Below are positions 22,659-40,628 of a stretch of DNA of 64,000 nucleotides, piece by piece. How positions within the stretch are numbered: the stretch's first letter is position 1; every line of letters begins with the position of its first letter. Origin of the DNA: Patescibacteria group bacterium (lineage in GTDB: Bacteria > Patescibacteriota > Minisyncoccia > Phycocordibacterales > PALSA-1337); NCBI GenBank assembly GCA_040388415.1, contig JAZKBV010000002.1, forward strand, positions 63,383 to 127,382, given 5' to 3'. A program made the position numbers and the translations under genes. The notes beneath the pieces are model-generated. The model ran no database searches. It was not told the DNA's origin and was given only the letters and a program-made list of their open reading frames with translations.

Positions 22659-23765
22659 TTAGCGGTTCATAGGCATCACTAAATACATGAATGTGCCGTC
22701 ACCTGAGGCTGGACGAATAACCATAGGCTTATTGAGACCACCGAGCTGGAAAGAAACACTGTCAGCATCGATGGACTGGAAACAATCAGCGATATATTTG
22801 CCATTAAAATTGATCTCAAGCTTATCACCTGTCATAGAAGCATCGACTTTTGTTGCATTTTCGCCGATATCAGCATTTTTTGTCTGAATCTCGAAACCAG
22901 CACCCTTTGGGTCGAGGATAAATTTTACTTGATTGAATTTATCAGTAAACACATTTGAAACCTTGAGTGCATTAATAACATCTTGTTTGAGAGTGATCGC
23001 TTCGGTGCTATACCCTTTTGGAATAATCTGCTTATAATCAGGAAATGTGCCATCAACTATACGAGATGCGAGATATACCCCTTGAGCTTCAAATGAAATA
23101 AGATTTTTATTTGAATGCATCTCTACGTCACCGCCCACATCTTCTAATATACGAATAATGTCACTGATATTTTTAAAAGGAATGAGAATATCTTGAAAAT
23201 CTATATCTGTGCCGACTTTTACTTTTTTCTCAGCCAAACGGAAAGAGTCTGTTGCTGCAAAAGTGATAAATTCATTGTTCTTATACACATACACACTTGA
23301 AAGCTCTGGTTTTACACTTGAGATCGATGCGCTATACCAGACTGATTTGAGGCCTTTAATGAAGACTTCTGATGAGATAGTCACCTTTTGTCCTTCACTT
23401 ACACGAGGAATTGATGGAAAATCTTCTGCGGGCACGGTTTTTATGGTCACTTTTGAACGAGCTGATGAAATATTAAGATTTCCTGAAACAAGCTCCATTT
23501 TTACCGTTCCATCTTGATCATTTAACTGGGAAACAAAAGATGATATGGTCTGAGCGGGTATAGCAACTGTTCCTGTTGTGTCCGACTTTGCTGGAATAGA
23601 GATTTCAAGACCAACATCAAGATTCGTCGCTTTGATGTGGAGTGTATTTTTTCCTATTTCAAACAATAGACATGAGAGGACAGGAAGTGTTGCGTTCTTA
23701 CGCGCGATCTTCTCTGATAACCCGATCATTCTTTTGAATTGTGATAGATGTAATTCGATTTTCAT
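22659..23765 (-). CDS. dnaN: DNA polymerase III beta subunit (sliding clamp)
   Basis: 368 aa with a three-domain clamp architecture. N-terminus MKIELHLSQFKRMIGLSEKIA...LPVLSCLLFE. Confidence 0.9.
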   Translation of the reverse strand: MKIELHLSQFKRMIGLSEKIARKNATLPVLSCLLFEIGKNTLHIKATNLDVGLEISIPAKSDTTGTVAIPAQTISSFVSQLNDQDGTVKMELVSGNLNISSARSKVTIKTVPAEDFPSIPRVSEGQKVTISSEVFIKGLKSVWYSASISSVKPELSSVYVYKNNEFITFAATDSFRLAEKKVKVGTDIDFQDILIPFKNISDIIRILEDVGGDVEMHSNKNLISFEAQGVYLASRIVDGTFPDYKQIIPKGYSTEAITLKQDVINALKVSNVFTDKFNQVKFILDPKGAGFEIQTKNADIGENATKVDASMTGDKLEINFNGKYIADCFQSIDADSVSFQLGGLNKPMVIRPASGDGTFMYLVMPMNR

Positions 23766-26025: not shown

Positions 26026-26781
26026 ATGTACAATACATTTATATTTAAACCCCTTTATAACGGGCTCGTTGCTATCATGGATCTGTTGCCATGGATCGAT
26101 GTGGGCATTGCGGTCATCCTCTTTACTATTATTGTCCGCCTCATCATCTTTCCTCTCTCAAAGAACGCCCTGTTGACTCAGGTAAAAATGAAAGAAGTGG
26201 AGCCCGAAGTGAACAAAGTAAAGGCAGAATATGCCAATGATCGCCAGGCACAAGGCCTCAAGGTTATGGAACTATACAAATCAAAAGGCATCAAGCCCTT
26301 TTCTGGCGTTCTGCTCCTCATAGTTCAGCTCCCTATCCTTCTTGCGCTCATCTCTGTTTTCTATAAGATCATACCAACGATTGACCCGAACCTTCTTTAT
26401 AGTTTTGTTCATGTTCCTGTGATTAAACCGTTTCTACTTGGGCTAGATTTGACCAAGCCAAACATAATTCTTTCTCTGGTTACAGGCATCATCCAGTTTT
26501 TTCAGATGCATTATTCTATCGCTTCACGCCAACACCGAGAAATGGTGGCAAAAAATGACGGTAAACTTCCCACAGCAACAGATTTTTCATCGAATATGGC
26601 AAATACCATGAATACACAGATGAAATTCCTTCTTCCTATTATTGCCTTTGCTTCAACATACTGGCTCATTCCAGTAAAATTCCCTCAGGCAGCATCGATC
26701 ATTGCCATTTATTGGTCTATTAGCTCCCTCTTTACTCTTGGTCAGGAGTTATACATCAGAAAAAAGCATCTGACCAAATAA
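26026..26781 (+). CDS. yidC: membrane protein insertase YidC (short, Gram-positive-type)
   Basis: 251 aa in the rpmH-rnpA-yidC arrangement. FIFKPLYNGLVAIMDLL...ILFTIIVRLIIFPL and multiple TM helices typical of YidC/Oxa1. Confidence 0.85.
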   Translation: MYNTFIFKPLYNGLVAIMDLLPWIDVGIAVILFTIIVRLIIFPLSKNALLTQVKMKEVEPEVNKVKAEYANDRQAQGLKVMELYKSKGIKPFSGVLLLIVQLPILLALISVFYKIIPTIDPNLLYSFVHVPVIKPFLLGLDLTKPNIILSLVTGIIQFFQMHYSIASRQHREMVAKNDGKLPTATDFSSNMANTMNTQMKFLLPIIAFASTYWLIPVKFPQAASIIAIYWSISSLFTLGQELYIRKKHLTK

Positions 26782-26839: not shown

Positions 26840-28105
26840 TTACTTTGTTCCGGCAACAAGATCGTACGACCAGAACGAAAGATTTCTTTTATTCATGAAA
26901 TACAGGAAGTTATCTTTGTCATCCAAGCCAAGGTTAAAGGCGTCTATACTTGTTTTTGCTTCTTCAAATACTGATGATATGAGATGGACTTCGCCGGTCG
27001 AAGCATTTACTTCCCATATCTTATCGATTGTTGAAAGCGTTCCTTTATACCAATCGTCAGGATATGTACCAGGAACAGGCTGATATGGTACGGCACAATA
27101 GACTATGTTTTTGTAGAAGTTGCCCCAGACACATTTGTCAGCGAGCGTATGAATGACCGCATCGTTCCCTGTAGATGAAGCGATCGTGTAGATGCTAGTG
27201 AGGACATCGTTGCCATTTCCAGCTACTGAAAGGATGGCGTATTTTGCATCGTGGCTGATACGAGCAGAAAGGCCAGGTAATGGTCCAATAATTTTTTTCC
27301 ATGTGCCAGTTTTTGGATTAACAAAATAGAGGTAGCCGTTTTGAGCTGCTGAGCCTTTTGTTGTGATAGCGATTGTATTTTCTTCTGGCCACTCAACATT
27401 CACTTCGGTTATAGGGGTTGTGAAGATTTGTGTCGCTGATCCACCGCCGAGAGGAGCAGTGTAACCGACACCTCGGCCATCTTTAATGATAAAGAAGAAT
27501 ACCTTATCTTTCTTCGGTGACGCTGCGAACGTAGTGATGCCTTCAGGGAGGCCTTTGCCACGAAGCTCATATGGCGTAGCTGATGTGGTGGTTGTAGCAT
27601 GTGGTATAAGCGTCGCAAAGACCGTCGAGATCGTGTCATTATCATCTCCGAGAATGGAACCTATGAAGCCAGATATGTTTTTATTCCATGCACTTTCGTA
27701 TGTGCGTGGAAGGAGCGTGTTTGAAAGCGTGCTAATGGTCAAAGTGTCACCTTGGGCTTCGAGAACATTACCTCTGCCACGGTCAACCCAATGAACGAGC
27801 GTAGTGCTCGCAGTCGTCGATGCGCCGTAACCACCGATAGGTGTCGCACTCAAGAGGCGCAATGTAGGTATTTTGACTTCAACAGGATTGTTGTTTGAAG
27901 GTGTTGTGTCAGTGTTGTCAGTACTGCCCTGCTGTGTGTTTCCAGGTCTTCCAAAAGGATTAAAACCCGAGTTTGATGAATCGGTACCATTGTTCTGGTT
28001 TGTTGTTGGCTTGTTGATGAAGAAATACCAAAAGGCAGCCAAAGCGACGATGACAAGAAGGATGAGGGTGATTATGAGGCCGAGGTGAGATTTACGTTGT
28101 TCCAT
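26840..28105 (-). CDS. hypothetical membrane-anchored secreted protein, beta-propeller-like repeats (last gene of the T4SS-like cluster)
   Basis: N-terminal TM segment, S/T/N-rich linker, then repeated DG..G/W motifs (DGRGVGYT, AKYAILSVAGNGND, FLYFMNK..LSFWSYD) reminiscent of PD40/WD40 blades. Confidence 0.45.
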   Translation of the reverse strand: MEQRKSHLGLIITLILLVIVALAAFWYFFINKPTTNQNNGTDSSNSGFNPFGRPGNTQQGSTDNTDTTPSNNNPVEVKIPTLRLLSATPIGGYGASTTASTTLVHWVDRGRGNVLEAQGDTLTISTLSNTLLPRTYESAWNKNISGFIGSILGDDNDTISTVFATLIPHATTTTSATPYELRGKGLPEGITTFAASPKKDKVFFFIIKDGRGVGYTAPLGGGSATQIFTTPITEVNVEWPEENTIAITTKGSAAQNGYLYFVNPKTGTWKKIIGPLPGLSARISHDAKYAILSVAGNGNDVLTSIYTIASSTGNDAVIHTLADKCVWGNFYKNIVYCAVPYQPVPGTYPDDWYKGTLSTIDKIWEVNASTGEVHLISSVFEEAKTSIDAFNLGLDDKDNFLYFMNKRNLSFWSYDLVAGTK

Positions 28106-28106
28106 G

Positions 28107-29426
28107 TTATTTGTCGCCGAGTTGGTTGATAATCGATTGAGATTGTTTCTGGAGAATAGTATTTATGTCAGAATTCTGTATCTTTGCGCTCGAAACCAGA
28201 TCTTGTATATTGGATATAACTTTTTTTACCTGTGCGGAGTTCTGCGCATTAAGCTCGTTTGTCATTGTTTGGTTTAGTCCTTGAGCTACAACCAATCCAC
28301 CAACCGCTCCTCCAACTGCACCCTTTGCACCTCCATTTGTACCACCAACAATGGCGCCAGCCGCCGTGAAAAAATCAGTATTAAATGTGGTAATTGTATT
28401 GACCAGCTCGCTGAAATAAGGACTTGTATTGAGAGTGGCAAGCTCGTTATTTATAGCTACCATTGTACCTGCATATCTGCTGTAGTCGATGACTCTGTTT
28501 GCGGCGTCAGGCTGACCAAGGTCTTTTAGCTGGGCAATGGCTGTTTTCATCTGTTCATTTATTGCTCCCTGGCTTATAGAAGTACAATCATCGCTTGTTT
28601 TCTGGCTTACTGCTCCTGTATTGAGGCATTTTTCAATCTGAACAGTCATGAGTCCTACTGCCTGTTTTGCTACAATTTCACCCTTGGTAGAGTTTTCTTT
28701 ATCGAGTATTGAAAGAAGCTTGTTACAAAGTTCTTCGTTGCTTACGCTTAAATAGTCGCCATCCTCACATCTAAGCTCTGCCTGGTCTGGACTTATAGCG
28801 TCGGAAGAAAGATTTAGTTGATTGTATATGCTTTGTTTCTCCTGTTCATAATCAGCTAGAGCCTTTTTGTCAGCCGCAATCTCATCGAGGATGCTATTCA
28901 CTTGAGCTTTATAAATTGAACCTTGCTGCGCAGATAATAATGAAAGCTGTATGTCATTGAGCCACGTATTAATATTGTTCGTCGGATGGATATTCAATGG
29001 CGCTACCAATGTCGAAGGTATATTCACAAAGCGTGGATCAATCGTTCTCAAGATAAGATATGAAGATAAGATAAGTAGCAGGCCGTATATAGCATTTTTA
29101 ATCTTGTCCAAACCTTCTGACTTGCTATTCACTGCATCAGCGGTCATGTACTGGAATCCGCCAAATGTGATCATGAAAACTGCAGCAACTGCACCCATGG
29201 CAATCAAAAGGTTAAAGGCGTATTTGATATACGAGTCGAAATTGACGTTTGTTGCGAGCTGGAGGTTGCTCGAGGTGACATCAGGGAGTGGTGCCAAAGG
29301 AGTGTATGAATCCTGAACAGAAGTAAAAACATTGCCCGCAGCTGTTGCAACGATAGGGGCTACGCCCATTGCTGAAACAAGAAATATAAATGCAATAGTC
29401 GTGTATTTTAAGTGCTGTAATTTCAT
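28107..29426 (-). CDS. hypothetical protein with signal peptide, two N-terminal hydrophobic helices (pilin/VirB2-like topology) and a long extracellular domain
   Basis: MKLQHLKYTTIAFIFLVSAMGVAPIVATAAG, then TM helices YAFNLLIAMGAVAAVFMITFGG and IYGLLLILSSYLIL. The C-terminus is Gly-rich. 1-nt spacing to flanking genes. Confidence 0.45.
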   Translation of the reverse strand: MKLQHLKYTTIAFIFLVSAMGVAPIVATAAGNVFTSVQDSYTPLAPLPDVTSSNLQLATNVNFDSYIKYAFNLLIAMGAVAAVFMITFGGFQYMTADAVNSKSEGLDKIKNAIYGLLLILSSYLILRTIDPRFVNIPSTLVAPLNIHPTNNINTWLNDIQLSLLSAQQGSIYKAQVNSILDEIAADKKALADYEQEKQSIYNQLNLSSDAISPDQAELRCEDGDYLSVSNEELCNKLLSILDKENSTKGEIVAKQAVGLMTVQIEKCLNTGAVSQKTSDDCTSISQGAINEQMKTAIAQLKDLGQPDAANRVIDYSRYAGTMVAINNELATLNTSPYFSELVNTITTFNTDFFTAAGAIVGGTNGGAKGAVGGAVGGLVVAQGLNQTMTNELNAQNSAQVKKVISNIQDLVSSAKIQNSDINTILQKQSQSIINQLGDK

Positions 29427-29430
29427 AATA

Positions 29431-30492
29431 TTATAAAGTTATTGGTGTTGATGGCGAAGTATCAGAGTCAGCTGCATCAAAGGATACGTTGAAGCTGTTG
29501 TCGGCGCTCTGGAGGATATTGTTCACTCCCCTCACCCCGAGCTCGATATGCGATGTGCCCGATGTGCCATCAGGAGTGCGAAGAACAATCGACCTGCTTG
29601 AAGCGAGTTCATCGTGTTCGAGGCCGTTGATCATCCAGTCTATGGTGAGATCATTACTGATATTGCTTGAGAAGTTAAAGCCGAAAAGCGAAGCAAATGC
29701 TTGGACCTCTTTTTGACTGCCTATCTTCACAGAGTTGCTGATTGCGGTATTGAAGAATGGTCCATAAACAGGGTCATTTTTGTAGAACGTGATCAAGGGC
29801 GATGTTGCACTGATGGCAATCAAGCTCTGCGCTTGGGCAGAACCATCGCGCGTGCTTGCGGTGACGATCAGATAATACGGTCGTGGCACGAGCTTCCCTT
29901 GCAACAGTATCGATTGTTTTCCAAATCCCGACTGGTCTTGAAGGGCTGTGCCGTCATCTTTTTTCCATTGGTATACCAGAGTTGCTGGGTCGTACTCTAC
30001 TCCAGCTGAGTTTGCCAAATGTGGCACGGCGATAACTCTGACGGTATTTTGAAATACGAGAGGAACTTTACCTTTGAAAAAGGGTGGAGTGTAGCCATCA
30101 GTTTCGATTATCAGATCCATAGATCCAGATCCAATCGTGATGGTATTGTTATAACGAATACCATTTGCAGTCACTGCGGTGATAGCAACAGTAATTTTTT
30201 TACCGAGATTTGGCGCTTTCACGTCAAGCGAGATTGCCCCGATACCCTTCTGAACTTGTTTACCATCGACAGTCCAGACGATAGTTGCTGAATTGATATC
30301 AAATGTGTAGCTCTGAGCTTTTATGGTCATAGTTTGACCAGGAACTGGGTTGTCAGTTGAAGGTGTGAGCACGATAGCCGTCGCGTTTTCAGGCAGGCCC
30401 TGAGCCTGTGTAACTGAAGAAATACCCAAAGACAGACAAGCAAGAAGCACTACAATACCATATCTATAATTTACAAAACGAGAAAATTTCAT
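29431..30492 (-). CDS. hypothetical secreted protein with three tandem Ig-like/beta-sandwich repeats
   Basis: Signal peptide, then a repeated motif (IVWTVDGKQVQKG / LVYQWKKDDGTALQ / LTIDWMINGLEHDE) every ~100 aa. Tracked GTG start at 30519; the ATG at 30492 is preferred. Confidence 0.45.
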   Translation of the reverse strand: MKFSRFVNYRYGIVVLLACLSLGISSVTQAQGLPENATAIVLTPSTDNPVPGQTMTIKAQSYTFDINSATIVWTVDGKQVQKGIGAISLDVKAPNLGKKITVAITAVTANGIRYNNTITIGSGSMDLIIETDGYTPPFFKGKVPLVFQNTVRVIAVPHLANSAGVEYDPATLVYQWKKDDGTALQDQSGFGKQSILLQGKLVPRPYYLIVTASTRDGSAQAQSLIAISATSPLITFYKNDPVYGPFFNTAISNSVKIGSQKEVQAFASLFGFNFSSNISNDLTIDWMINGLEHDELASSRSIVLRTPDGTSGTSHIELGVRGVNNILQSADNSFNVSFDAADSDTSPSTPITL

Positions 30493-30534
30493 TACGTATA
30501 TTGTATCAATATTGCGCACTGATTGCGATGGGGG

Positions 30535-31278
30535 TTATTCACGCCTATTAAGTACTTCCATCTCAATATCCCTCACATGATCTCTTCCGGGTATAACTTC
30601 CTCCGGATCGATGGATTCAACCCGTCTTTGTGCGTCCGCAATATACCTATTTTCTGCCTCTACAGCAATTGTTCTTCTCACACCATCTTCATCCATTGGA
30701 TGAGATGCATACTTACGCCCCATAGCCTCAGCAATCTCCATGTCGTTCATTTGATTTGTTTTTGTCTGATTTTTTCCTATACCTACTGCCACACGGACAC
30801 CATTTGTATTTAATGGGCCAGCATTATAGTTTATTACCCTACCCTTGCCCCCAGATGAGCCAGTTCCTGAAGTCGTATTGGGAATGTATGAGTTTCCGGT
30901 TTGAGTTTCAGGTAAGCGTACACGGTTATTATTCACTGGTGAGTTCGTACCCCTCCCTTTCAAAGGTATCTTGAAGCCCGTTTTGTCCTCTATACGTGAC
31001 ATAACGACTATAGCAATTGCAGCAGCAAGTATAGTTGGAAATTCTTGTATACCTGGTATCAATTCTGCGATAAATGAAATCAATTCAACGCCAAGACGTC
31101 TTGCATTTATGAGCCCCAGACCTTTTTTCCAAAGATAAAGGCTTGCACAAAGCCAAAAAACTGGGCTAACAAAGTCACCAGTTATTGGAATGAAAGTAAT
31201 TAAATCAGCAAAACCTGCTACGGCTAAAAACTTAAATATGGCACCATTATCTAAATGATACTGCGGTTTTTCCTTCAT
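30535..31278 (-). CDS. hypothetical membrane protein (2-3 TM helices, soluble C-terminal domain)
   Basis: FLAVAGFADLITFIPITGDFVSPVFWLCASLYLW and ILAAAIAIVVM hydrophobic helices. Directly downstream of the VirB4-like gene. Confidence 0.45.
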   Translation of the reverse strand: MKEKPQYHLDNGAIFKFLAVAGFADLITFIPITGDFVSPVFWLCASLYLWKKGLGLINARRLGVELISFIAELIPGIQEFPTILAAAIAIVVMSRIEDKTGFKIPLKGRGTNSPVNNNRVRLPETQTGNSYIPNTTSGTGSSGGKGRVINYNAGPLNTNGVRVAVGIGKNQTKTNQMNDMEIAEAMGRKYASHPMDEDGVRRTIAVEAENRYIADAQRRVESIDPEEVIPGRDHVRDIEMEVLNRRE

Positions 31279-31299
31279 GTAGCTATTATATCACTCCTA

Positions 31300-33114
31300 T
31301 TACTGCCCTGTCTGTTCAAGCTGTCTCTTTGATTCTTTTATGTTTAATACTTGTTGAGGATTTGTGGTGATGATTTGATCCTCTGTATATGAGCCGATGA
31401 CCTTGATGGCGACGTGCTTGAGGCCGACAAAGAAGATACCCTCCCCCACATCTGATTCGAGCAAGAGATATTTTTCTTCATCAGTGAGATTGAACACTTT
31501 TTGAACGTGATCAATAACCGTTGGCGATTGCTTGAGGAGCATTTGGATAGATGAGTTCGTCACAATTGGCATACCATAGGGCGAGTTCAAGAAATCGTCC
31601 ACGTCCTGAGTGATCGTTGAAAGACCGAGGAAATATTTACGTCCACGTTTTGCCAAACCGAATAGGAATGAAGCCGTATCTTCTGATTTCATCATCCACC
31701 ATGCCTCATCGATCACGAGCAGGCGCTTTTTGAGCTCTTTGCGGACAGCATTCCAGATATAGTGAGTGACGAGATACATAGCCACTGGTTTGAGTTCATC
31801 TTCCATATCACGGAGCGAGAAGACGATGAATTTTTTATTGATATCGACGTTCGATGGGCGGTTGATGAATCCTGACCAGGTTCCTTTTGTATATTTTGAG
31901 AGGCGTTGCACGAGTGAGTCCGCCCCATCCATACCTGCAAGCACAAGCTCAAAGTCTGACAAGAGCGGTGCCTCTACATTTCTAAAATCAGAATCAGGCG
32001 TGATATCTTTGAGCGCGTATGTCTCAGTGATAGCACGATCGATGATCGCGTCTTCTTCTTGTGAGAGCCCGCCCAACATGATGCGGAAGAGGCCGACAAG
32101 GTTAATGATGTTTGAACGAAGAACATCTGATGCAGATTCGTCTTCGCGAGGGATAGGAAGATCGAATGGGTTGATATGGTGCTCAGAGTTGAGCGAGATA
32201 TTGAAGTACTTCCCTCCAGTGGCCTCGGCCATATACTCGTATTCTTTTTCTGGGTCGATGACGATGACATCGACATCGAACATGAGCGTACGGAGGATTT
32301 CGAGCTTGGTCGTGTATGATTTTCCTGCACCGGCAGTGGCAAATGTTACCGAGTTATAGTTTTCTAATGAAAAACGGTCAAAAAGAACGAGTGAAGAGTT
32401 GTGTCTATTGATGCCATACAAAATTCCCTTGTTAGATGTGAGGTCAAAAGAAACAAATGGAAAAAGGCTTGAAAGCGGCGATGAATTGAGCTTTGAATGA
32501 ACACCAAGCTGGTCATCAGCTATAGGAATAACGCTCTTGAAACCTTGTTCTTGCTGGAAAAGAGCAGGCTTAAGGTATACAAGCTTTGCTTCAAGGATGG
32601 ATTTGATCTCAGATTCGAGCTTATCAAGCTCATTTTCATTATCAGCGAATATGGTGATGTATACGCCTACATCAAAAAGGTGTTCCTGTGCCTGCATAAG
32701 TTGATCACGAAGCTGTTCGAGGTCTTGGTAGGCTGTATCGAGCGCTGGGTCACGAACAAGCCCTTTGTCCTCCCTTCTTGAGATCTGACTTTGTACTTCA
32801 GCAACCTTCTTTTGGAAGTGACGGAGTATCTTTGCAGTATCAACAGGATGAATGAAGATGGAAATATCAAAAACCTTGTCCAAGTTGATGATCGGTGCGA
32901 ACCAACTTTCCTCGAGGAAGCGCGGATAAGAGATGACAAAAAGCGTACGACCAACTTTTTCACCAAGGTTAAGTTCTTTCGGGCTGATCTTGAGCGCAGA
33001 AGGAGCGATGACGTCTTTGAGTTCGAGCACACCTGCTTGATAGATCTCTTCGGGGAGGATAGAGACGATCGGAGCTTCTTGTTTTTTACCGAATAAATTT
33101 GAAAATATAGACAT
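31300..33114 (-). CDS. VirB4/TraC/CagE-family type IV secretion ATPase (C-terminal ATPase portion)
   Basis: Walker A TFATAGAGKSYTTK, Walker B with the VirB4-typical DEAW (LLVIDEAWWMMK), and the upstream segment VGRTLFVISYPRFLEESWFAPII, which is VirB4-like. Confidence 0.75.
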   Translation of the reverse strand: MSIFSNLFGKKQEAPIVSILPEEIYQAGVLELKDVIAPSALKISPKELNLGEKVGRTLFVISYPRFLEESWFAPIINLDKVFDISIFIHPVDTAKILRHFQKKVAEVQSQISRREDKGLVRDPALDTAYQDLEQLRDQLMQAQEHLFDVGVYITIFADNENELDKLESEIKSILEAKLVYLKPALFQQEQGFKSVIPIADDQLGVHSKLNSSPLSSLFPFVSFDLTSNKGILYGINRHNSSLVLFDRFSLENYNSVTFATAGAGKSYTTKLEILRTLMFDVDVIVIDPEKEYEYMAEATGGKYFNISLNSEHHINPFDLPIPREDESASDVLRSNIINLVGLFRIMLGGLSQEEDAIIDRAITETYALKDITPDSDFRNVEAPLLSDFELVLAGMDGADSLVQRLSKYTKGTWSGFINRPSNVDINKKFIVFSLRDMEDELKPVAMYLVTHYIWNAVRKELKKRLLVIDEAWWMMKSEDTASFLFGLAKRGRKYFLGLSTITQDVDDFLNSPYGMPIVTNSSIQMLLKQSPTVIDHVQKVFNLTDEEKYLLLESDVGEGIFFVGLKHVAIKVIGSYTEDQIITTNPQQVLNIKESKRQLEQTGQ

Positions 33115-33118
33115 AAGA

Positions 33119-33763
33119 TTATGTTATCTGAATCGGCTTCTCCGTTTCCCCTGGATTAAAGATCTTGTAGAACAATTCTACCACTTCTTCGGTGCCAAGT
33201 TCTGCCGCGCGGATGCCACAGCGAACGAGCCCCTGTTCTACTACAGCGACACGCTGCTCCAACTGGCTTCTGTACTCTGTAAACTGTGCGTCTGACGAGG
33301 CAGTTTTCTGTTCAGCAGTCTTATTTTTGCCCGGCATCATGTTGCTGATAGGGTTTTTGCTTGCGGTGAGAATAGGTGGATCATAAGGTACGACCACAAA
33401 GAAGCTCTTTGACATGATATTGGTGCTTTCGACGAATGATCGTACGAATTCGATATACTCACGAACCTGTATTTTCATAAGGTCAGTGGTCTGTTCTTTG
33501 TAGCGATCTTCAAGGAGAGCAATATATGGCCGTATATCGAGTTTTTTCGACTGTGCGAATATTTGTATTGAGAAATCGAGCGAGTTCAAAAAGTTTTGGA
33601 ATTCGGAAAGAATCGCATTTTGTTCGTCGCCAGATTTCAAGGCAAAGTTAAGAGAAGTGGCCAGTACTACCGACCTCATTGCCCCGCTTCTGAGTATGAC
33701 GATACCGTCTCGGATTTCCTGAATCGGTATGAATTCCTGAGTTGTTGATTGTTTAGCAGCCAT
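33119..33763 (-). CDS. probable VirB4 N-terminal domain encoded as a separate ORF
   Basis: 214 aa, ending 4 nt before the ATG of the ATPase ORF. 214 + 604 aa is about the length of Gram-positive VirB4 homologues (~800 aa). FIPIQEIRDGIVILRSGAMRSVVLATSLNFALKSGDEQNAILSEFQNFL resembles VirB4 N-termini, recalled from memory. Confidence 0.4.
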   Translation of the reverse strand: MAAKQSTTQEFIPIQEIRDGIVILRSGAMRSVVLATSLNFALKSGDEQNAILSEFQNFLNSLDFSIQIFAQSKKLDIRPYIALLEDRYKEQTTDLMKIQVREYIEFVRSFVESTNIMSKSFFVVVPYDPPILTASKNPISNMMPGKNKTAEQKTASSDAQFTEYRSQLEQRVAVVEQGLVRCGIRAAELGTEEVVELFYKIFNPGETEKPIQIT

Positions 33764-34197
33764 TATTTTTGTCTCTTATTGGAATAAATGCTTTCTTTGA
33801 TATCCAAACTCCAGGCCAAGTCTTTGAGCTTACTGTCTGCTATCTTCGGTACCATGACCGATGCATAGTTTTTTGCTTCACGAACAGCCTCGGCAGTATC
33901 TTTTGGTCGAGGCTTCTCTTCTTTTTTCCAAATATACAGTTTATCGGTAAAGTAATATTTAAATGCTGACTCGACTACATTGATGAATGGCCTGTTGTTT
34001 ATCCTGTAGAAAGCAAAAGCTGTAGATATGGCCATGATAGCGACGATAGGTATAAGAGAGAAGATGAGATTGTTTATGAATATATACACTACAAAGGATA
34101 AACCAGCGCCGCCGGCCATAAAGATGAACTGCTTCAAGGTGAGTGGCCCGAAGATCTTATCCTCAACCTCGATGAATTGGGGAACTTGAAAACGCAT
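33763..34197 (-). CDS. PrgI-family (VirB3-like) small membrane protein
   Basis: 144 aa. MRFQVPQFIEVEDKIFGPLTLKQFIFMAGGAGLSFVVYIFI plus a second TM helix matches the PrgI/VirB3 pattern (VP..., then FGgLTlrQ, then two TM). Stop overlaps the next start (TAATG). Confidence 0.55.
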   Translation of the reverse strand: MRFQVPQFIEVEDKIFGPLTLKQFIFMAGGAGLSFVVYIFINNLIFSLIPIVAIMAISTAFAFYRINNRPFINVVESAFKYYFTDKLYIWKKEEKPRPKDTAEAVREAKNYASVMVPKIADSKLKDLAWSLDIKESIYSNKRQK

Positions 34198-34247
34198 TAC
34201 TCCTATTATACATTAGATTTACCGTACAATGGCTGTAGATATCTCGC

Positions 34248-34865
34248 TTACGCAACAGGTTCACGGTACAGATCTGGCCCTCTTGGTTTCTTTGGCATGA
34301 TAGGCGGCGCTTTCTGGGGACTTGTCGTTTTTTGCTCACTCTTCTTTTCAATTGAAACCATAGGTCCAGCCAAGAGATGATCAACCATTGTCACAGGATT
34401 CTCTATACCAGCAATGAGCTCATCGTGACTTTCGATAGGCTGTGCGGTCTGGTCAATGCCATTGCTTCCCTGCTCTGGTTCTACCGTAAAATCACCCGCG
34501 TGTTCAAGGTCAGAGACAGAGCTAGCGTTTGACGCTTTCTCAATATTTTCTTGAGTCGAACGCATAAGCGTTTTTATTTTACTGAAGATATCTTTATTGA
34601 TGTCGTCAGCTAGGGCCGTGGCAGTTTTGACTGGTACTCCTGCGCTATTTGCAAAATTACCCACAAAGCTACTTGAAGGAGATAGTCCGAGCATGATGAG
34701 ACCCACTTGATCGACAAGCTCACCTTCCTGGTCGAGCATTAGGTTATATTTCTTTGAGATTGCAATGAGACCGTCATGAACATCAGTAGACGTGATAGCA
34801 TCCTGCACTCCTTTTGGCAGTTGTTCAAATTTTGCTTGTATTTCTTCTGAAGTGAATTGACGCAT
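34248..34865 (-). CDS. hypothetical soluble protein of the T4SS-like cluster
   Basis: 205 aa, acidic, no TM helices. In-operon position between the VirB6-like and PrgI-like genes. Confidence 0.4.
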   Translation of the reverse strand: MRQFTSEEIQAKFEQLPKGVQDAITSTDVHDGLIAISKKYNLMLDQEGELVDQVGLIMLGLSPSSSFVGNFANSAGVPVKTATALADDINKDIFSKIKTLMRSTQENIEKASNASSVSDLEHAGDFTVEPEQGSNGIDQTAQPIESHDELIAGIENPVTMVDHLLAGPMVSIEKKSEQKTTSPQKAPPIMPKKPRGPDLYREPVA

Positions 34866-34870
34866 AATGA

Positions 34871-37096
34871 TTATTTTTTAGCTCCTCCTTCTGGTTTTGG
34901 TGAACCACCTTTACTTTCTCCACCACCTTGTGCTTTGAGACCTTCAACAGAATTTTTTAGATCATCAAACTCCTCTTTTTCAACTTGTGCCTTAGCTGCG
35001 TCTATATCCATCTGCGCCTGCGCCTTAGCTTTTTCATTAGCAGTCATTTTATTGCTTATCGCCGCTATAGCATCCGTTCTTTCTTTTTCAATAGCTTCTT
35101 TTTGTACCTTGATCCCATTCAACTTTTCTTGAGCTGCTGATAGGGATTGGGTAAGTGGAACAGTCGATGTGCGGTTAGCGGGCATTTTTGCGGCATTCGC
35201 AACTTCAGTAGACTTTATTTGCTCATTGATCTTGCTAATTTCAAGCTCGATATTCTTCTCCTCCTTCTCTACATCACTTAGTTGTTTATTTGCTTTCTCA
35301 GTTGCGTCTTCACGTTCTTTTTTGAAAGCAATCTCATTAGTGACGTATGTACTCATATTTGTTTTTGCAGTTTCCCCAGTTTTTTTCTTTGTTTTCGCCT
35401 CTGCAACATCATCCGCCTTCTTTGTCATAGCAAAACCAGCTTGCTGTGACCCACGTGATCTCATCAATTTTGCTAGGATGCTTACATCTGAAGTAGTGAG
35501 TGCATCGCGATGAGTCTTTTGTAGTTGTTCCGCTGCGGATACAGCTGACTTGTACGCTGCCGCATCTTTTTCTTTAGCAGCATCTAGGACTGCTCTATAT
35601 GAGGCGTCCGAGTAAGATGCGCGATTTCGTGCTACTGTATCAGCATTACGAGTAAAGTCCTCACGGCTGACAGTGCCAATAGCCTTATTCCTCTTCTCCG
35701 TATCTTCTTTTTCAGTTTTGGTGTAACTGTCGTATTGCTTAGCAACTTTACCAATATTTTTGGTTACTAAACGCCCAATAGTTGGATTCGTTGCTTCAAA
35801 TTTGCGCATCGTACTGCTGTTATTGGCACGAGATGCTCCCCAACTAAGCGTATTTCTCTTGGTAAAGTTGCCAACTCCCTTCCATAGGCCTTTCGCACCA
35901 AACTTATCCGCATTGATCCAGTCTGAAGCAACGCCACCCATCGACATGGCTGTCACAAGTGGAATGTTGAGCAAGAAGATGATGAAGAAATCATTGATAG
36001 CAAGAACGATATAGTTCATCGGTATGAATGAGAGAGACGTCCCTGATCCTGAGAATGCGTTACCGCTCGGGTTAGTAAATACCGTGCTTGCGGTCAGTAT
36101 GCGGAGCGCCGCATATAAGAGGAGCAGATATACCGGCATAAATATAAGCTGAGCATTGAGCTGAGTGGTGAATGTCTTTGCCTTGTCTTGCAGTTGCGGT
36201 ATGACCCATGAGGCGAACCAAATAGGAGAAAATGCCAAGAGGAGTACCAAAACTATAAAACGGACGATAAAAGCAAGCGCGGCAATGAGGAAAGAAAGGC
36301 CGATCGTAAACATGATGATTGTGCCTACAACGCCCTGGATGAGGATCTCCAGCGGTTTTGCATCTGCCGGAGCATTCGCATCTGTAGGTCCGCCTGAGTT
36401 ATATATGCTTTGTGGGCTGAGATAGGTCAGGAATATGTCAGATATGCCACCTACGTTTCCTTTGAACATCTGTGAGGTGATGACACAGGTGTTCACTCTG
36501 CCGATGCTCTGGCCATCCTTCGGCTGACAGTCTTTTGCAGTCTGCGCGTCTATCACTGCGGGCGTAGAAGAAGAGTTCACGACGATACCTCGATACAATG
36601 TCAAAGAAACGATATTCGACGCGTCGATGAGAAGGCTGGTGATGAAGAAACTGAAGTTGATGAGGATGCCGACAATAACAACGTTCTTTATGAGGTTACC
36701 AGGACTACCAAGCGTTTTTGAGCTTTGTCCGAGAATCATCAAAAATGACGCATACAAGAGCATGAATATGATGAACATGCCCGATATGTCGCGTATCGTT
36801 TGCCATACTATATATACGCCCTGAGTGCTATCGACGAAATCTTTGATCTGGAGTGTGAGCGTAATGGACACATTCAGAAGCGCACCGGTGAGGGTAACCC
36901 ACAATGACATGAGCATCAATGCAGTATTGGATATCCATGCCGCTACTTCAGCCAGAATTGAGTTCAAGCTCAAGCCGAAGAGCGAGACGATATCGCCTGC
37001 CCCAACATCAGCGCGCGCCACAGACAAGGAAATAACCCATCCAGTGACCGGAAGTACAAAGAATCGTGTGAAGTTGGATAGGTAGCGTTTGATCAT
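34871..37096 (-). CDS. large polytopic membrane protein (VirB6/TrbL-like) with ~300-aa K/E/A-rich coiled-coil C-terminal tail
   Basis: 741 aa with at least 8 hydrophobic helices in the first 450 aa, then a low-complexity charged tail (KKADDVAEAKTKKK...EKEEKNIELEISKINEQIK...). Topology and cluster position are consistent with a VirB6 analogue. Confidence 0.45.
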   Translation of the reverse strand: MIKRYLSNFTRFFVLPVTGWVISLSVARADVGAGDIVSLFGLSLNSILAEVAAWISNTALMLMSLWVTLTGALLNVSITLTLQIKDFVDSTQGVYIVWQTIRDISGMFIIFMLLYASFLMILGQSSKTLGSPGNLIKNVVIVGILINFSFFITSLLIDASNIVSLTLYRGIVVNSSSTPAVIDAQTAKDCQPKDGQSIGRVNTCVITSQMFKGNVGGISDIFLTYLSPQSIYNSGGPTDANAPADAKPLEILIQGVVGTIIMFTIGLSFLIAALAFIVRFIVLVLLLAFSPIWFASWVIPQLQDKAKTFTTQLNAQLIFMPVYLLLLYAALRILTASTVFTNPSGNAFSGSGTSLSFIPMNYIVLAINDFFIIFLLNIPLVTAMSMGGVASDWINADKFGAKGLWKGVGNFTKRNTLSWGASRANNSSTMRKFEATNPTIGRLVTKNIGKVAKQYDSYTKTEKEDTEKRNKAIGTVSREDFTRNADTVARNRASYSDASYRAVLDAAKEKDAAAYKSAVSAAEQLQKTHRDALTTSDVSILAKLMRSRGSQQAGFAMTKKADDVAEAKTKKKTGETAKTNMSTYVTNEIAFKKEREDATEKANKQLSDVEKEEKNIELEISKINEQIKSTEVANAAKMPANRTSTVPLTQSLSAAQEKLNGIKVQKEAIEKERTDAIAAISNKMTANEKAKAQAQMDIDAAKAQVEKEEFDDLKNSVEGLKAQGGGESKGGSPKPEGGAKK

Positions 37097-37105
37097 GAAG
37101 TATTA

Positions 37106-38830
37106 CTATTCCCCACCGAGCGCGTAACACTGGTTCAAAAGAGCTTTTGCGCTCGTTTCATAAGGACCGGCGACGCCTTGCGCATTCTGTACCTCGTTCT
37201 TAAGTTCAGTCTTATTGATTACTGGTGAGTTATTTGAGAGTGTCTGTTGAAGAGCTACACTAGCTGCTTGGAGATCTTCTGGACTACTTAATTCAGTCAT
37301 GCTATCTGCATCAGAATTGATTGAGTCAAGAGCGCTTTGTGCTGCGCTAAGCTTGTCAGCATAAGGCTTTTTGGCCAACTGGAGGCTTGTATCCGTATGT
37401 GCAATCGATGTGAGGAGAGCTGCAAGCGCATCACCGTTTGCCACTGAATCATAATGTATAGCATCGGCGCATCTTTTTGCCTCGGCAAGATCGTTTGTTG
37501 CTGTGGTGAATGCATCAACCGCCTGCTGGTGATAACTGATTTCTTCCTGAGCATTTTTTTGATATGTTGCAAGCGCCGCCTGAACGTTTTGCGCATCATT
37601 TGCGTATGTGCTCGTAGCATTCGCTTTATCTGAAACCGCCTGAATGAATGATTGTGTCTGTCCTGAAGGTCGTGAGCTGACAGTTGCAAGGCCTGTTTGA
37701 AGGACTTGATTGACAAGTTGACCGATCAAAGCGTCTACGATTTCGTTGATAGAGTCAGCCAAATTGAGCTGATCAACTCCTGAACCAAGAACTTTTTCGA
37801 GCTGACCGTTGATGACTGATCCCGGGGTTTTTGTTTCGCATGATTTGTATGCTCCAGCCGAGGTTGGACTTTGAGATATCGATCCTTGTCCTGAGTTTTG
37901 GTAGGCCATGACTGCCTGTGGTGAGGCTTTTCCTGTATTGAGACCCGTCTGACTTGCCAAACTGGTATTATCAGTCAAAAATCCAGTACCGCTATATATT
38001 TGTCCGGGGCTCTGGTTAGCAAAAGAGCTTTTTGTGCCGGCGATATTGTTGACCTGTGCAGATGCCTCTGCAACACTTTGCACTTGTGCCGCACTTACTT
38101 CTTTACATTCTTGCCATGACAAGAAACCGCTTCCTTGAACAAGTTCCTGCTGCTTCGCGGATTGTTTTTGTCCAGTGCGTTGCAACAAATCGCTATGAGC
38201 TTTCAGGTATGCACCAGAGATATTGTTTGTTGGTCTGCTGACTTCTATGAATGCGGGCCAGCCACCTTGTTTGAAGTCGCCCTTCATGAAGCCTCCGATA
38301 GATGCTCCGTCCACAGTTGAGTGTTTTACATTATTGATAACTGAGCTGAGTGTGCAGGTATATTTTTCAACTTGACCATACCCTGCTTGTCCCAAGGCGA
38401 GCGAAAGTCTGACATCGATATTGAACGGCGAACAAAGCCCTGAAAGGATGCCTGTGTTGGCGATGAAATCACCAGTGATCTGGTCACCTAAATCGGAGAA
38501 GAAACCGGCCGGATTTGTCAGGAACGAGGGGCTACCGCTGAAGCCGGAGTTGATCCACTGAACGACGCTTGCGGTGATGCGCTGAACGATCATTTTTGCG
38601 ATATGCCATGCGAGGCCGTCGAGGACCCAGTTTTTAATTCTCTCCAACCAATTATTGGCAGTGTTTTGTAGCTCTGTCGGGCTCACGTTTCCTTCAATAG
38701 TGATAAGACCATTTAAAACCACAACAGGAATAGCGTGAGCTTGCTTTGGTTGAATATTAATTCCACCAAAAATAATGCTAATCATTACTAGTCCAAGTAC
38801 TATTTTTCTTTTTGATGAAAATATATTCAT
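37106..38830 (-). CDS. hypothetical secreted protein (signal peptide, Ala/Gln/Ser-rich)
   Basis: MNIFSSKRKIVLGLVMISIIFGGINIQPKQAHA signal peptide, then 540 aa with low-complexity A/Q/S-rich segments. Second gene of the cluster. Confidence 0.45.
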   Translation of the reverse strand: MNIFSSKRKIVLGLVMISIIFGGINIQPKQAHAIPVVVLNGLITIEGNVSPTELQNTANNWLERIKNWVLDGLAWHIAKMIVQRITASVVQWINSGFSGSPSFLTNPAGFFSDLGDQITGDFIANTGILSGLCSPFNIDVRLSLALGQAGYGQVEKYTCTLSSVINNVKHSTVDGASIGGFMKGDFKQGGWPAFIEVSRPTNNISGAYLKAHSDLLQRTGQKQSAKQQELVQGSGFLSWQECKEVSAAQVQSVAEASAQVNNIAGTKSSFANQSPGQIYSGTGFLTDNTSLASQTGLNTGKASPQAVMAYQNSGQGSISQSPTSAGAYKSCETKTPGSVINGQLEKVLGSGVDQLNLADSINEIVDALIGQLVNQVLQTGLATVSSRPSGQTQSFIQAVSDKANATSTYANDAQNVQAALATYQKNAQEEISYHQQAVDAFTTATNDLAEAKRCADAIHYDSVANGDALAALLTSIAHTDTSLQLAKKPYADKLSAAQSALDSINSDADSMTELSSPEDLQAASVALQQTLSNNSPVINKTELKNEVQNAQGVAGPYETSAKALLNQCYALGGE

Positions 38831-38834
38831 ACTA

Positions 38835-39767
38835 TTATTGAGGTTTTATTAATGAGAAAAATGAGCCGGGCTCAGTTTGGGTAAAAGTTACGCCGTTTGT
38901 ACTGAAATAACTATTCATGCTCATAAACGTCGACAAAATACTGCTTTGCGTCGTTCCATAGTTGCTCAGTGATACTATCGACTGCATCGGGTCGCCTTCT
39001 ATGTTTCGGAGCGCTTGAGATATTGATGCCATTTTATTTATTGAGTTAATGAGATCTATGTGATTCTGAACAAGCGGTTGAGGCACTTGTGTCGATATGA
39101 GCAACTGCGCTACTTTTTTGTACGCTGCAGTAACGGCGTCTATCTGACTGAGCAGCGTCAGATCATTTTTATCAAAAGCATTATATGCCAAATCAGCCGC
39201 GTTCTTCTTTGGGCCATAGGTGATAATGATGCTCCCGACCGTATTGCCATATATATGGAGCGTATTAGCATCAGTTGTGCCTAGTACAGAAATATCTTTT
39301 GCAGTATATATTTTTACTGCAGATGATTCGACCTGCGCGTTCGCGAGCGTTTGGTCAATCACTCCCTGGACAAGCTGTTTGTTGCCATCGAGATTATTTT
39401 GTTTGAGTTCGATGTAGCGTGCAAAGAAATCACGGCCAACTTTGTCAGTGAGCGTGAGAGGTGTATCCGATGCTGTTGAACCATTTGAAGCTTTGCCTAT
39501 AGAAGTATTTGAGCCATTTACATCAAAAAACTGCTTTTTCCAGTCGGTACTGCTTGATATGATCAAGTTTTGGTTAGTGTCATCTGCTTGAACCGCAATA
39601 TCTGCGCGAGGCTGAGGAGCGGGTTGCCAGTAGGTATATGCAGTTGTCGCACCCACGGCCAATATGCACACAATGGCAATAGTGAGAGTCTGTTTGTGCG
39701 GGTAGTATTTTGCCATGCTACGTTTAATTATAGCAGAGAAAACCTTAATATTCTGTGGATAAACCAC
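38835..39767 (-). CDS. hypothetical membrane-anchored protein (first gene of the T4SS-like cluster; GTG start)
   Basis: 310 aa with TM helix TLTIAIVCILAVGATTAYTYW. Starts 6 nt after the rsmA stop. The start codon region overlaps a perfect TTATCCACA 9-mer. Confidence 0.4.
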   Translation of the reverse strand: MVYPQNIKVFSAIIKRSMAKYYPHKQTLTIAIVCILAVGATTAYTYWQPAPQPRADIAVQADDTNQNLIISSSTDWKKQFFDVNGSNTSIGKASNGSTASDTPLTLTDKVGRDFFARYIELKQNNLDGNKQLVQGVIDQTLANAQVESSAVKIYTAKDISVLGTTDANTLHIYGNTVGSIIITYGPKKNAADLAYNAFDKNDLTLLSQIDAVTAAYKKVAQLLISTQVPQPLVQNHIDLINSINKMASISQALRNIEGDPMQSIVSLSNYGTTQSSILSTFMSMNSYFSTNGVTFTQTEPGSFFSLIKPQ

Positions 39768-39773
39768 GATACT

Positions 39774-40628
39774 CTATGAATGTATCTGACGCTCGATGTC
39801 TAACCAATTTTGTGGAGTGAGATCCTCTGCGCGAACCTTGTCATCAAGTCCAATTTGTTTCCAAATACGATCAATGTCCTCTTTTGCGAGCACAACCTCG
39901 AGGTTTCTTTTTAAGACTTTTCTTTTGTGTGCAAAACCTGCTTTTACTATCGTAAAAAACTGAGTGATAGCTAGTGGGTTAATATTTAATGCTTCTTTGA
40001 ATGCGTCGGCAGAGATATTTTCAATAGAAAGGATGGCTGAGTCGACCGTTGGAGGTGGGGTGAACGCTCCTGGAGGTACCTTGGCAATCATTTTTGGCGT
40101 GCCAAACACTTTGACTGATATAGAAAGGATGCTTTCCTTGCTCTTCCCTGTTGATTGTTCAGGTCGAGCGATGATTCTGTCCGCGACTTCTTTTTGAACA
40201 AGCAAAACCATTTTTTGTGGACGCGGTTCGTGCTCGAGGAATTTTTCGAGGATTGCGCCAGTAATGTAGTACGGAATATTGGCGATGAGGGAGTAAGAAG
40301 AAGGGGGCAAGAAGAAAGAAGAAAGAAGTGAAGAGTCAAAAGTCAAAAGATTTTCATCCAAGATATCGCCATGAATGAGTTTGAGGTGGCCCGACGAGAT
40401 CTCAGCAGCAAATTTTTCTTTGAGCAAACTGATGGCACGGTCATCTTTTTCTACTGCAATCACTAGTGCTCCGGACTTAAGGAGTTCAGTTGTCAAAATA
40501 CCTGTTCCAGGGCCTATCTCAAGGATATTTTGGCCAGCGACAATGTTTCCAGCAGCAATGATTTGATCCAACACATGTTTAGAGTTGAGGAAATGCTGGC
40601 CAAGGGATTTTTTCGCAAATAGTCTCAT
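39774..40628 (-). CDS. rsmA: 16S rRNA (adenine1518/1519-N6)-dimethyltransferase RsmA/KsgA
   Basis: LGQHFLNSKHVLDQII...ILEIGPGTGILTTELL SAM-binding motif, and NIPYYITGAI. Confidence 0.88.
   Translation of the reverse strand: MRLFAKKSLGQHFLNSKHVLDQIIAAGNIVAGQNILEIGPGTGILTTELLKSGALVIAVEKDDRAISLLKEKFAAEISSGHLKLIHGDILDENLLTFDSSLLSSFFLPPSSYSLIANIPYYITGAILEKFLEHEPRPQKMVLLVQKEVADRIIARPEQSTGKSKESILSISVKVFGTPKMIAKVPPGAFTPPPTVDSAILSIENISADAFKEALNINPLAITQFFTIVKAGFAHKRKVLKRNLEVVLAKEDIDRIWKQIGLDDKVRAEDLTPQNWLDIERQIHS

Follow-up and report, generated by a model that had tools for sequence, protein, structure and literature searches.

On the minus strand of the window (the whole 64,000-nt stretch of Patescibacteria DNA that was analysed), what appears to be one VirB4 homologue is carried by two consecutive open reading frames (ORFs), of 214 aa (ORF1) and 604 aa (ORF2). 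The question raised by this locus is whether a single gene has been broken, by mutation or by an error in the assembly, or whether two genes are the normal form of VirB4 in this organism. A first-pass annotation had left these options side by side. The layout that it described was confirmed when re-read on the minus strand: ORF1 ends with a TAA at 33121-33119, and the ATG of ORF2 (33114-33112) lies 4 nt downstream in a different frame, +1 relative to ORF1. No Shine-Dalgarno-like motif was seen near the start of the ATPase gene. ORF1 opens with MAAKQSTTQEFIPIQEIRDG and has the C-terminus ...GETEKPIQIT, and the peptides quoted for the two proteins were found at residues 11-20 of ORF1 (FIPIQEIRDG) and residues 54-66 of ORF2 (VGRTLFVISYPRF). 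The string ttttcaaatttattcggtaaaaaacaag, which had been taken for a homopolymer-rich junction, sits instead within ORF2, at about codons 3-12 (IFSNLFGKKQ), and a similar N-terminal peptide is kept in relatives (e.g. MSIFSKLFG).

Table 1. Features of the T4SS locus, in window coordinates.
Feature	Position	Strand	Evidence
T4SS pilin (VirB2-like) domain protein, 439 aa, same operon	28107..29426	-	PF18895 T4SS_pilin, E 2.2e-6, 28.1 bits (cut-off 26.6)
VirB4-family ATPase (ORF2, 604 aa) that lacks the beginning of the N domain	31300..33114	-	NCBIfam, Pfam and PDB matches
Walker B region VIDEAWW, ATPase residues 467-473	31696..31716	-	read from the translation
Walker A GAGKSYT, ATPase residues 262-268	32311..32331	-	read from the translation
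Spacer TCTT, 4 nt, between TAA and ATG	33115..33118	-	
TrsD-like protein (ORF1, 214 aa), the beginning of the VirB4 N-terminal domain as a separate protein	33119..33763	-	
PrgI family (VirB3-like) small membrane protein, 144 aa	33763..34197	-	PF12666, E 4.1e-11, 43.7 bits (cut-off 27)
Polytopic membrane protein, 741 aa, VirB6/TrbL-like gene position	34871..37096	-	syntenic gene of nearest relative

The two genes belong to a tightly packed operon, whose genes in the window are -1 to +9 nt apart, in a chromosomal T4SS locus that adjoins dnaA and dnaN, with KsgA and an M23/LysM peptidase close by (Table 1). The stop of the PrgI gene overlaps the start of the TrsD-like gene by 1 nt, and the PrgI gene holds the same position in relatives and in a locus of the fused clade described below (L090). 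The 741-aa protein of the window had no Pfam match; PF19590 (TrbL_3) is found on its 758-aa counterpart in the nearest relative (L004/L005). ORF2 thus stands in a T4SS cluster with VirB3-like, VirB6-like and pilin genes.

ORF2 scored 372.9 bits against the NCBIfam model NF045971 (conju_CD1110), above the cut-off of 325, with only positions 178-732 of 752 matched, and it covered positions 293-885 of the mycoplasma VirB4 model VirB4_plasma (894 positions). Pfam matches were to P-loop_TraG (4.4e-25), AAA_10 and DUF87, and the structure of a VirB4 C-terminal domain (PDB 4ag5) matched residues 227-583 (E 3.4e-39). The protein carries a P-loop NTPase domain of the VirB4/TraC type, with Walker A and Walker B, at about residues 227-583, preceded at about residues 30-230 by the remainder of the N domain. 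A complete N-terminal domain was not found in ORF2, in which positions 1 to ~177 of the CD1110 model and 1 to ~292 of VirB4_plasma are absent.

ORF1, which aligned to the first part of the VirB4 profiles when checked against them, was placed at positions 1-114 of the CD1110-type model and positions 100-233 of VirB4_plasma, within the stretch missing from ORF2. No family was found by a Pfam scan of ORF1 at E <= 0.1 (noise only at E <= 10), and a PDB sequence search gave no match even at E <= 10; fold comparison was used instead, and the predicted fold of the protein is that of the TrwK/VirB4 N-terminus. PF26593 (TraC-like domain) is precomputed for all 120 homologues listed and for the syntenic genes; a local hmmscan at E <= 10 returned it neither for the window protein nor for the homologue P0062, the local library probably being without the model. 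Against the TrsD/TraD model NF041427, ORF1 reached 28.6 bits (E 1.1e-6), compared with a cut-off of 200 bits. Like TrsD/TraD, it stands alone as a protein of about 200 aa with homology to the N-terminal portion of VirB4, and its gene lies between a VirB3-like gene and a shortened virB4. Judged by sequence similarity, it is a remote relative of TrsD, outside the staphylococcal subfamily in NCBI's definition. An internal duplication, which would make ORF1 a paralogue of the N-terminal part of ORF2, was rejected, as no similarity was found between the two ORFs (best E 0.53). Many TrsD-like representatives (260-443 aa) bear C-terminal extensions that show no relation to the ATPase, a hint that the TrsD-like piece may have additional functions of its own.

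Single-chain relatives show how the two proteins relate to each other. In the fused relative P0172 (797 aa), residues 1-209 of ORF1 align to residues 1-214 (42% identity) and residues 27-596 of ORF2 to residues 225-795 (56% identity). The fused clade to which such proteins belong comprises chains of 775-807 aa (about 790 aa), many of them labelled Candidatus Colwellbacteria. An 858-aa protein of the Myxococcus plasmid pYRE aligned in the same way, to ORF1 at residues 8-206 and to ORF2 at residues 234-750. The break between the two genes falls where the single-chain relatives are variable. A structure model of a fused relative was of moderate quality (pLDDT 67.5, pTM 0.53). Complementary NCBIfam coverage and the colinearity of fused relatives with both ORFs bear out the proposal that an N-terminal piece and an ATPase piece together represent one VirB4 homologue. 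The division that had been drawn between N domain and ATPase needs amendment: there are two pieces, but the break falls inside the N-terminal region, the second half of which stays with ORF2. Alignment shows that the short VirB4 and the TrsD-like protein complement each other as colinear pieces of a single-chain VirB4. Within the fused clade, two proteins of 600-601 aa (P0289 and P0385) resembled recent fissions; this reading was rejected for P0289 (600 aa), in which a stretch of N in the scaffold interrupts a fused gene, a real artefact.

The orthologous loci of related genomes were compared, and the same split was found. In a scan of species-representative Patescibacteria genomes (78 scorable; 79 loci with the window included), made with the closer alignment A2 and with the ATPase start taken as the codon aligned to Met1 of ORF2, the stop codon after ...PIQIT was kept in all 78 scorable genomes. 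An ATG was aligned to the first residue of ORF2 in 77 of the 78 (78/79 loci with the window); in L010 the alignment begins at residue 4. Protein identity across these genomes was 68-93%, and the closest homologues were from Candidatus Paceibacterota MAGs (93% and 98% identity). The spacer ranged from -4 to +194 nt, with -4 nt in 14 loci, +1 in 14, +4 in 10 (window included) and others up to +194; it was 13 nt or less in 55/79 loci and 14-194 nt in about 30% of relatives. All three relative frames of the two ORFs were used (36/26/17, window included). The ends that face each other are themselves conserved, GETEKPIQIT at the C-terminus of ORF1 and MS[IF]F... at the N-terminus of ORF2. The pairing of the TrsD-like and ATPase genes is far beyond chance; they adjoin each other in every related genome examined. 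Compared with the nearest relative, dN/dS was 0.048/1.53 (about 0.03) for the TrsD-like gene and 0.017/1.38 (about 0.01) for the ATPase gene, with dS saturated in both. The split is old and has been maintained, and both genes are under strong purifying selection.

These observations bear directly on the alternatives. A recent frameshift or pseudogenisation of a single-chain virB4 in this genome would agree with the position of the ORFs, 4 nt apart in different frames, and with the ~790-aa single-chain relatives in another Patescibacteria clade, but is hardly credible given a stop and a separate start in 78/78 genomes across variable spacers and three frames, the conserved termini, and low dN/dS with dS > 1. 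The A-rich and T-rich runs just downstream of the ATG might suggest that sequencing or assembly introduced an indel near the junction, at a homopolymer. However, these runs lie within ORF2 and encode a peptide found in relatives too, the same split occurs in independent assemblies from many projects (NCBI, JGI, ENA, Logan), and the spacer of the nearest relative, also of 4 nt, reads TATT and not TCTT; the chance of such an error is negligible. The conserved split and the low dN/dS therefore led to the rejection of frameshift, pseudogenisation and assembly error as they had been put forward in the first-pass annotation, and its remaining option, a natural split, was upheld together with the wording of translational coupling.

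Two further readings accept both ORFs as genuine. Programmed +1 ribosomal frameshifting, or stop read-through, would yield a single-chain VirB4, and the 4-nt distance and +1 offset in the window speak for it; yet the offset is unconserved among relatives, spacers extend to 194 nt, the initiator ATG of ORF2 is retained in 78/79 loci, and no conserved slippery motif was evident by eye in the junction sequences, so that this is very improbable. The 214-aa protein could also be an independent T4SS accessory subunit (e.g. a chaperone-like adaptor) that descends from a VirB4 N-terminus and is not part of the ATPase protomer, which we regard as unlikely.

The preferred reading, with a probability of about 0.85, is that the pair represents the normal two-gene VirB4 motor ATPase of a chromosomal, origin-proximal T4SS in Paceibacteria-type Patescibacteria. 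The TrsD-like protein carries the opening portion of the N-terminal domain of VirB4, and the 604-aa protein the rest of that domain plus the P-loop ATPase domain. The two polypeptides are predicted to associate non-covalently, rebuilding a complete VirB4 protomer. By analogy with the TrwK/VirB4-VirB3 complex of R388, the TrsD-like protein would attach the hexameric ATPase to the PrgI/VirB3-like membrane protein, whose gene lies just upstream. Because the prgI, trsD-like and virB4 genes are packed (1-nt overlap, 4-nt gap) and the genome hardly uses Shine-Dalgarno sites, the ATPase is probably translated by termination-reinitiation coupled to the TrsD-like gene; the subunits would then be made in nearly equimolar amounts. 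Tight coupling of translation is frequent but not required, since about 30% of relatives have the longer spacers. A leaderless promoter for ORF2 was considered and rejected: the CATAAT lies only 3 nt upstream of the ATG, too close when set against the 5-9 nt at other genes, and relatives have different junction sequences at this point.

A similar arrangement is found in the staphylococcal conjugative plasmids pSK41 and pGO1 (MPF_FATA class, pGO1 subclass). In pSK41 of S. aureus, the gene order is that of the proteins of 144, 214 and 604 aa in the window: a small VirB3-like protein of 135 aa comes first, then TrsD with 227 aa, then a DUF87 ATPase of 672 aa. The pSK41 ATPase, annotated only as 'DUF87 domain-containing protein' and presumably the TrsE/TraE of the nomenclature, matched ORF2 with E 8e-38, the alignment starting from about residue 10 of both. 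The similarity of pSK41 TrsD to the ORF1 family was detected by hhalign (E 5.9e-5, 174 columns) at a very low identity of 18%. Unlike the staphylococcal plasmids, the window locus is chromosomal and includes genes for a VirB2-like pilin and a VirB6-like protein. The order of PrgI, a protein of 318 or 337 aa and an ATPase of 636 or 661 aa recurs on Geobacillus pGspE55-1 and a Miltoncostaea plasmid. Compared with single-chain VirB4 proteins (R388 TrwK, PDB 7O41/7O42; the CD1110 family of Firmicutes ICEs; Thermoanaerobacter, PDB 4AG5), the chain is here broken after about 210 residues.

In Patescibacteria, according to Quinonero-Coronel et al. 2025 (PMC12102498), the most abundant T4SS component is TrsD, which is remotely homologous to the N-terminal portion of VirB4 and has 'no function assigned'. 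With the TrsD profile of CONJScan/MacSyFinder, 2,272 homologues were detected there, 1,664 of them next to VirB4. The same paper places the T4SS near dnaA, with TrsD usually adjoining virB4, and reports Gracilibacteria TrsD homologues that have no virB4 linkage. The window T4SS is probably not a conjugation system, because most such clusters are without a relaxase according to that paper. In one member tested by Tn-seq, the Patescibacteria T4SS was essential for epibiotic growth (Wang et al. 2023, PMC10633639). The systems in these two papers are matched here in VirB4, TrsD, PrgI/VirB3, the VirB6-like protein, the VirB2-like pilin and the dnaA/dnaN/KsgA/M23-LysM context, with no material difference, and the window is one further instance of them. 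The passages of PMC12102498 that were searched do not mention that the Patescibacteria VirB4 is without the segment supplied by TrsD, nor a fused Colwellbacteria-type sister clade. TrsD is absent from the main text of Guglielmini et al. 2014 (PMC4027160), which PMC12102498 cites for the TrsD-VirB4 homology.

The two-gene layout of TrsD and VirB4 is therefore natural and not peculiar to this genome, and had already been described for Patescibacteria in PMC12102498. In annotation, the two ORFs should be neither merged nor flagged as a frameshifted pseudogene, but named as TrsD-like and VirB4 subunits. Among Patescibacteria, one large lineage has the split form (Paceibacteria/Taylorbacteria-type, as in the window) and another is consistently fused (Colwellbacteria-type, ~790 aa). 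It is doubtful that the split is more than neutral gene fission, with a free TrsD-like subunit that might do what the fused chain cannot; if this were true, variable stoichiometry or exchange of the membrane-docking N-terminal piece might regulate T4SS assembly or gating. The small addition made here is the explicit complementarity and colinearity of the TrsD-like protein and the short VirB4, with a sister clade that keeps, or has regained, the fused form. TrsD would thereby gain a concrete role that can be tested, supplying as a separate protein the stretch with which the N-terminal domain of VirB4 begins.

The first-pass annotation had described the VirB4 homologue as two consecutive ORFs 4 nt apart in different frames, and this layout was confirmed: a 214-aa TrsD-like protein (ORF1) precedes a 604-aa protein (ORF2), and both peptides it quoted were found in these ORFs. 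The string it had taken for a homopolymer-rich junction does not lie there, and encodes IFSNLFGKKQ, residues of ORF2; a similar N-terminal peptide is kept in relatives. Judged by its sequence, ORF2 is a VirB4-family ATPase, with 372.9 bits against the CD1110-type VirB4 equivalog (curated cut-off 325), Pfam matches to P-loop_TraG, AAA_10 and DUF87, both Walker motifs, and similarity of residues 227-583 to the crystallised C-terminal domain of Thermoanaerobacter VirB4 (PDB 4AG5, E 3.4e-39). The match covered only positions 178-732 of the 752 in the equivalog profile, and positions 293-885 of 894 in the mycoplasma VirB4 model.

Features of the split virB4 locus and its surroundings (P and L handles denote homologous proteins and loci in relatives' genomes)
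Feature	Position	Strand	Remark
ORF1, 214 aa	33763 to 33119	minus	TAA stop at 33121-33119
Spacer TCTT, 4 bases	between ORF1 stop and ORF2 start	minus	
ORF2, 604 aa	ATG at 33114, end at 31300	minus	one base out of frame relative to ORF1
Walker A, GAGKSYT	ORF2 residues 262-268		
Walker B, VIDEAWW	ORF2 residues 467-473		
T4SS operon	about 26840-38830	minus	beside dnaN, dnaA, yidC
Six further operon genes	34248-34865, 30535-31278, 29431-30519, 37106-38830, 38835-39767, 26840-28105		
dnaN	22659-23765		
dnaA	23965-25311		
yidC	26026-26781		
KsgA	39774-40628		other end of operon
UvrD-type helicase	40663-42624		other end of operon
M23/LysM peptidase	42840-44039		other end of operon
TANNNT examples	upstream of 33763-34197, 30535-31278, 46072-47076, 53184-54107		
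Palindrome-enlarged spacers	L017:4140-4188, L035:4140-4239, L042:4146-4260, L066:4143-4183		
P0289 artefact	L089:1546-1646		N run in scaffold; gene caller restarted downstream

Both ORFs were colinear with single-chain VirB4. In the 797-aa homologue P0172, positions 1-214 aligned with ORF1 residues 1-209 and positions 225-795 with ORF2 residues 27-596. Used as a query, P0172 retrieved a whole clade of fused proteins (775-807 aa, many labelled Candidatus Colwellbacteria), each of which joins the TraC-like domain (PF26593) to the P-loop domain in a single chain; their gene lies downstream of prgI, the gene for a PrgI/VirB3-like small membrane protein, and near dnaA (locus L090). An 858-aa 'ATP-binding protein' of the Myxococcus plasmid pYRE was also colinear with ORF1 plus ORF2. 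The break falls where the fused alignment is variable (consensus ...YNPxTVEKxxxxIxxxxxxxxxxEDxIAP...), and residues 212-215 of the fused-relative model had pLDDT <50. These alignments showed ORF1 and ORF2 to be complementary pieces, and modelling showed ORF1 as the predicted carrier of the VirB4 N-terminal fold.

At least 8000 ORF1 homologues were found, the best 120 of which were all 210-227 aa long, with 76-94% identity, from Patescibacteria MAGs of many projects. Among the best 150 ORF1-type representatives (50% cluster level), all but one were free-standing. About 40 of these 150 (P0150-P0269) were 260-443 aa long; in most of the 40 the TrsD-like match begins near the N-terminus, and in none did the extra sequence match the ATPase ORF.

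A frameshift or pseudogene, or an assembly error, had also been offered as explanations of the split. From 80 species-representative genomes fetched, the 78 with both genes were scored for the first gene's stop and for the codon aligned to ORF2 Met1. A stop after ...PIQIT was present in 78/78, and an ATG aligned to the first ORF2 residue in 77/78 (78/79 loci with the window included). Across the 79 loci, the spacer was -4 nt (ATGA overlap, n=14), +1 (n=14), +4 (n=10) or otherwise up to +194 nt, and all three relative frames occurred (36/26/17), a pattern that neither one frameshift passed on by descent nor a repeated sequencing error could have produced. Relative to the nearest relative, synonymous sites were already saturated (dS 1.4-1.5) and dN was 0.048 (ORF1 gene) and 0.017 (ATPase gene), indicating strong purifying selection on both. 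Frameshift, pseudogenisation and assembly error were therefore rejected in view of the genome comparison and the selection on both genes. Programmed frameshifting was likewise rejected, since the initiator ATG is conserved and neither the spacer nor the offset between the frames is. An artefact among these genes has the appearance of P0289, a 600-aa 'short VirB4' of the fused Colwellbacteria-type clade, which was rejected as a true split because a run of N breaks a fused gene. The natural split, probably with translational coupling, which was the main interpretation of the first-pass annotation, was supported; the genes keep a fixed order, and selection acts on both. In several relatives the spacer is enlarged by short GC-rich palindromes with a GAAA/GAAG-type loop (e.g. 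GTCATTCCCGCGAAAGCGGGAA, TTGTCACCCCTGCGAAGGCAGGGGT), which look like small REP/MITE-like repeats inserted without disrupting either gene.

The prgI and trsD-like genes share 1 nt, and expression of prgI, the trsD-like gene and virB4 is probably coupled. The 4-nt gap before virB4 is no different from those between unrelated neighbours in the same operon (1, 4, 4, 5, 6 and 9 nt). Nor is coupling universal: spacers measure at least 14 nt in about 30% of relatives. No Shine-Dalgarno-like motif was found near the virB4 start, and such motifs were almost absent at the usual distance across the window. A -10-like TANNNT hexamer ended 5-9 nt before the start codon in 23 of 49 long ORFs, compared with 7.5% of random positions. 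Leaderless mRNAs appear to be widely used by this genome, seemingly with leaderless starts for first genes and tight packing within operons. The six further operon genes had no significant Pfam family assignment and are conserved in position in relatives; each is a candidate to encode one of the T4SS components still missing, such as a VirB8-like protein or a pilin.

The TrsD-like protein probably binds the short VirB4 non-covalently, restoring a complete N-terminal domain. In the R388 structure, this domain reportedly touches VirB3 and holds the ATPase to the membrane; by analogy, the free piece would tether the ATPase hexamer to the PrgI/VirB3-like protein, whose gene lies directly upstream.

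The same gene order is found in the staphylococcal plasmid pSK41 (a 135-aa protein, the 227-aa TrsD and a 672-aa DUF87 ATPase). ORF2 aligned with this ATPase from about residue 10 of each (E 8e-38), and an hhalign comparison of the ORF1 family with TrsD gave E 5.9e-5 (probability 65%) over 174 columns. The triad also occurs on complete plasmids of two cultured bacteria, Geobacillus subterraneus and Miltoncostaea oceani, as PrgI, a protein of 318 or 337 aa and an ATPase of 636 or 661 aa. According to a 2025 survey (Quinonero-Coronel et al., PMC12102498), TrsD is a remote homologue of the VirB4 N-terminus; no other T4SS component is as abundant in Patescibacteria, where TrsD has 2,272 homologues, 1,664 of them VirB4-associated, and it is reported essential in Southlakia epibionticum. 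The Paceibacteria virB4 neighbourhood given there (dnaA, dnaN, KsgA, M23/LysM peptidases) corresponds to the origin-proximal T4SS placement in the window. Given these counterparts and the survey, the arrangement is an instance of the already known TrsD plus VirB4 of Patescibacteria/MPF_FATA T4SS. No mention of a fused sister clade within Patescibacteria was found in the passages of the survey searched (PMC12102498). The additions made here are modest: the complementarity and colinearity of the TrsD-like protein and the short VirB4 are demonstrated explicitly, and Patescibacteria are shown to include a sister clade with the fused form.
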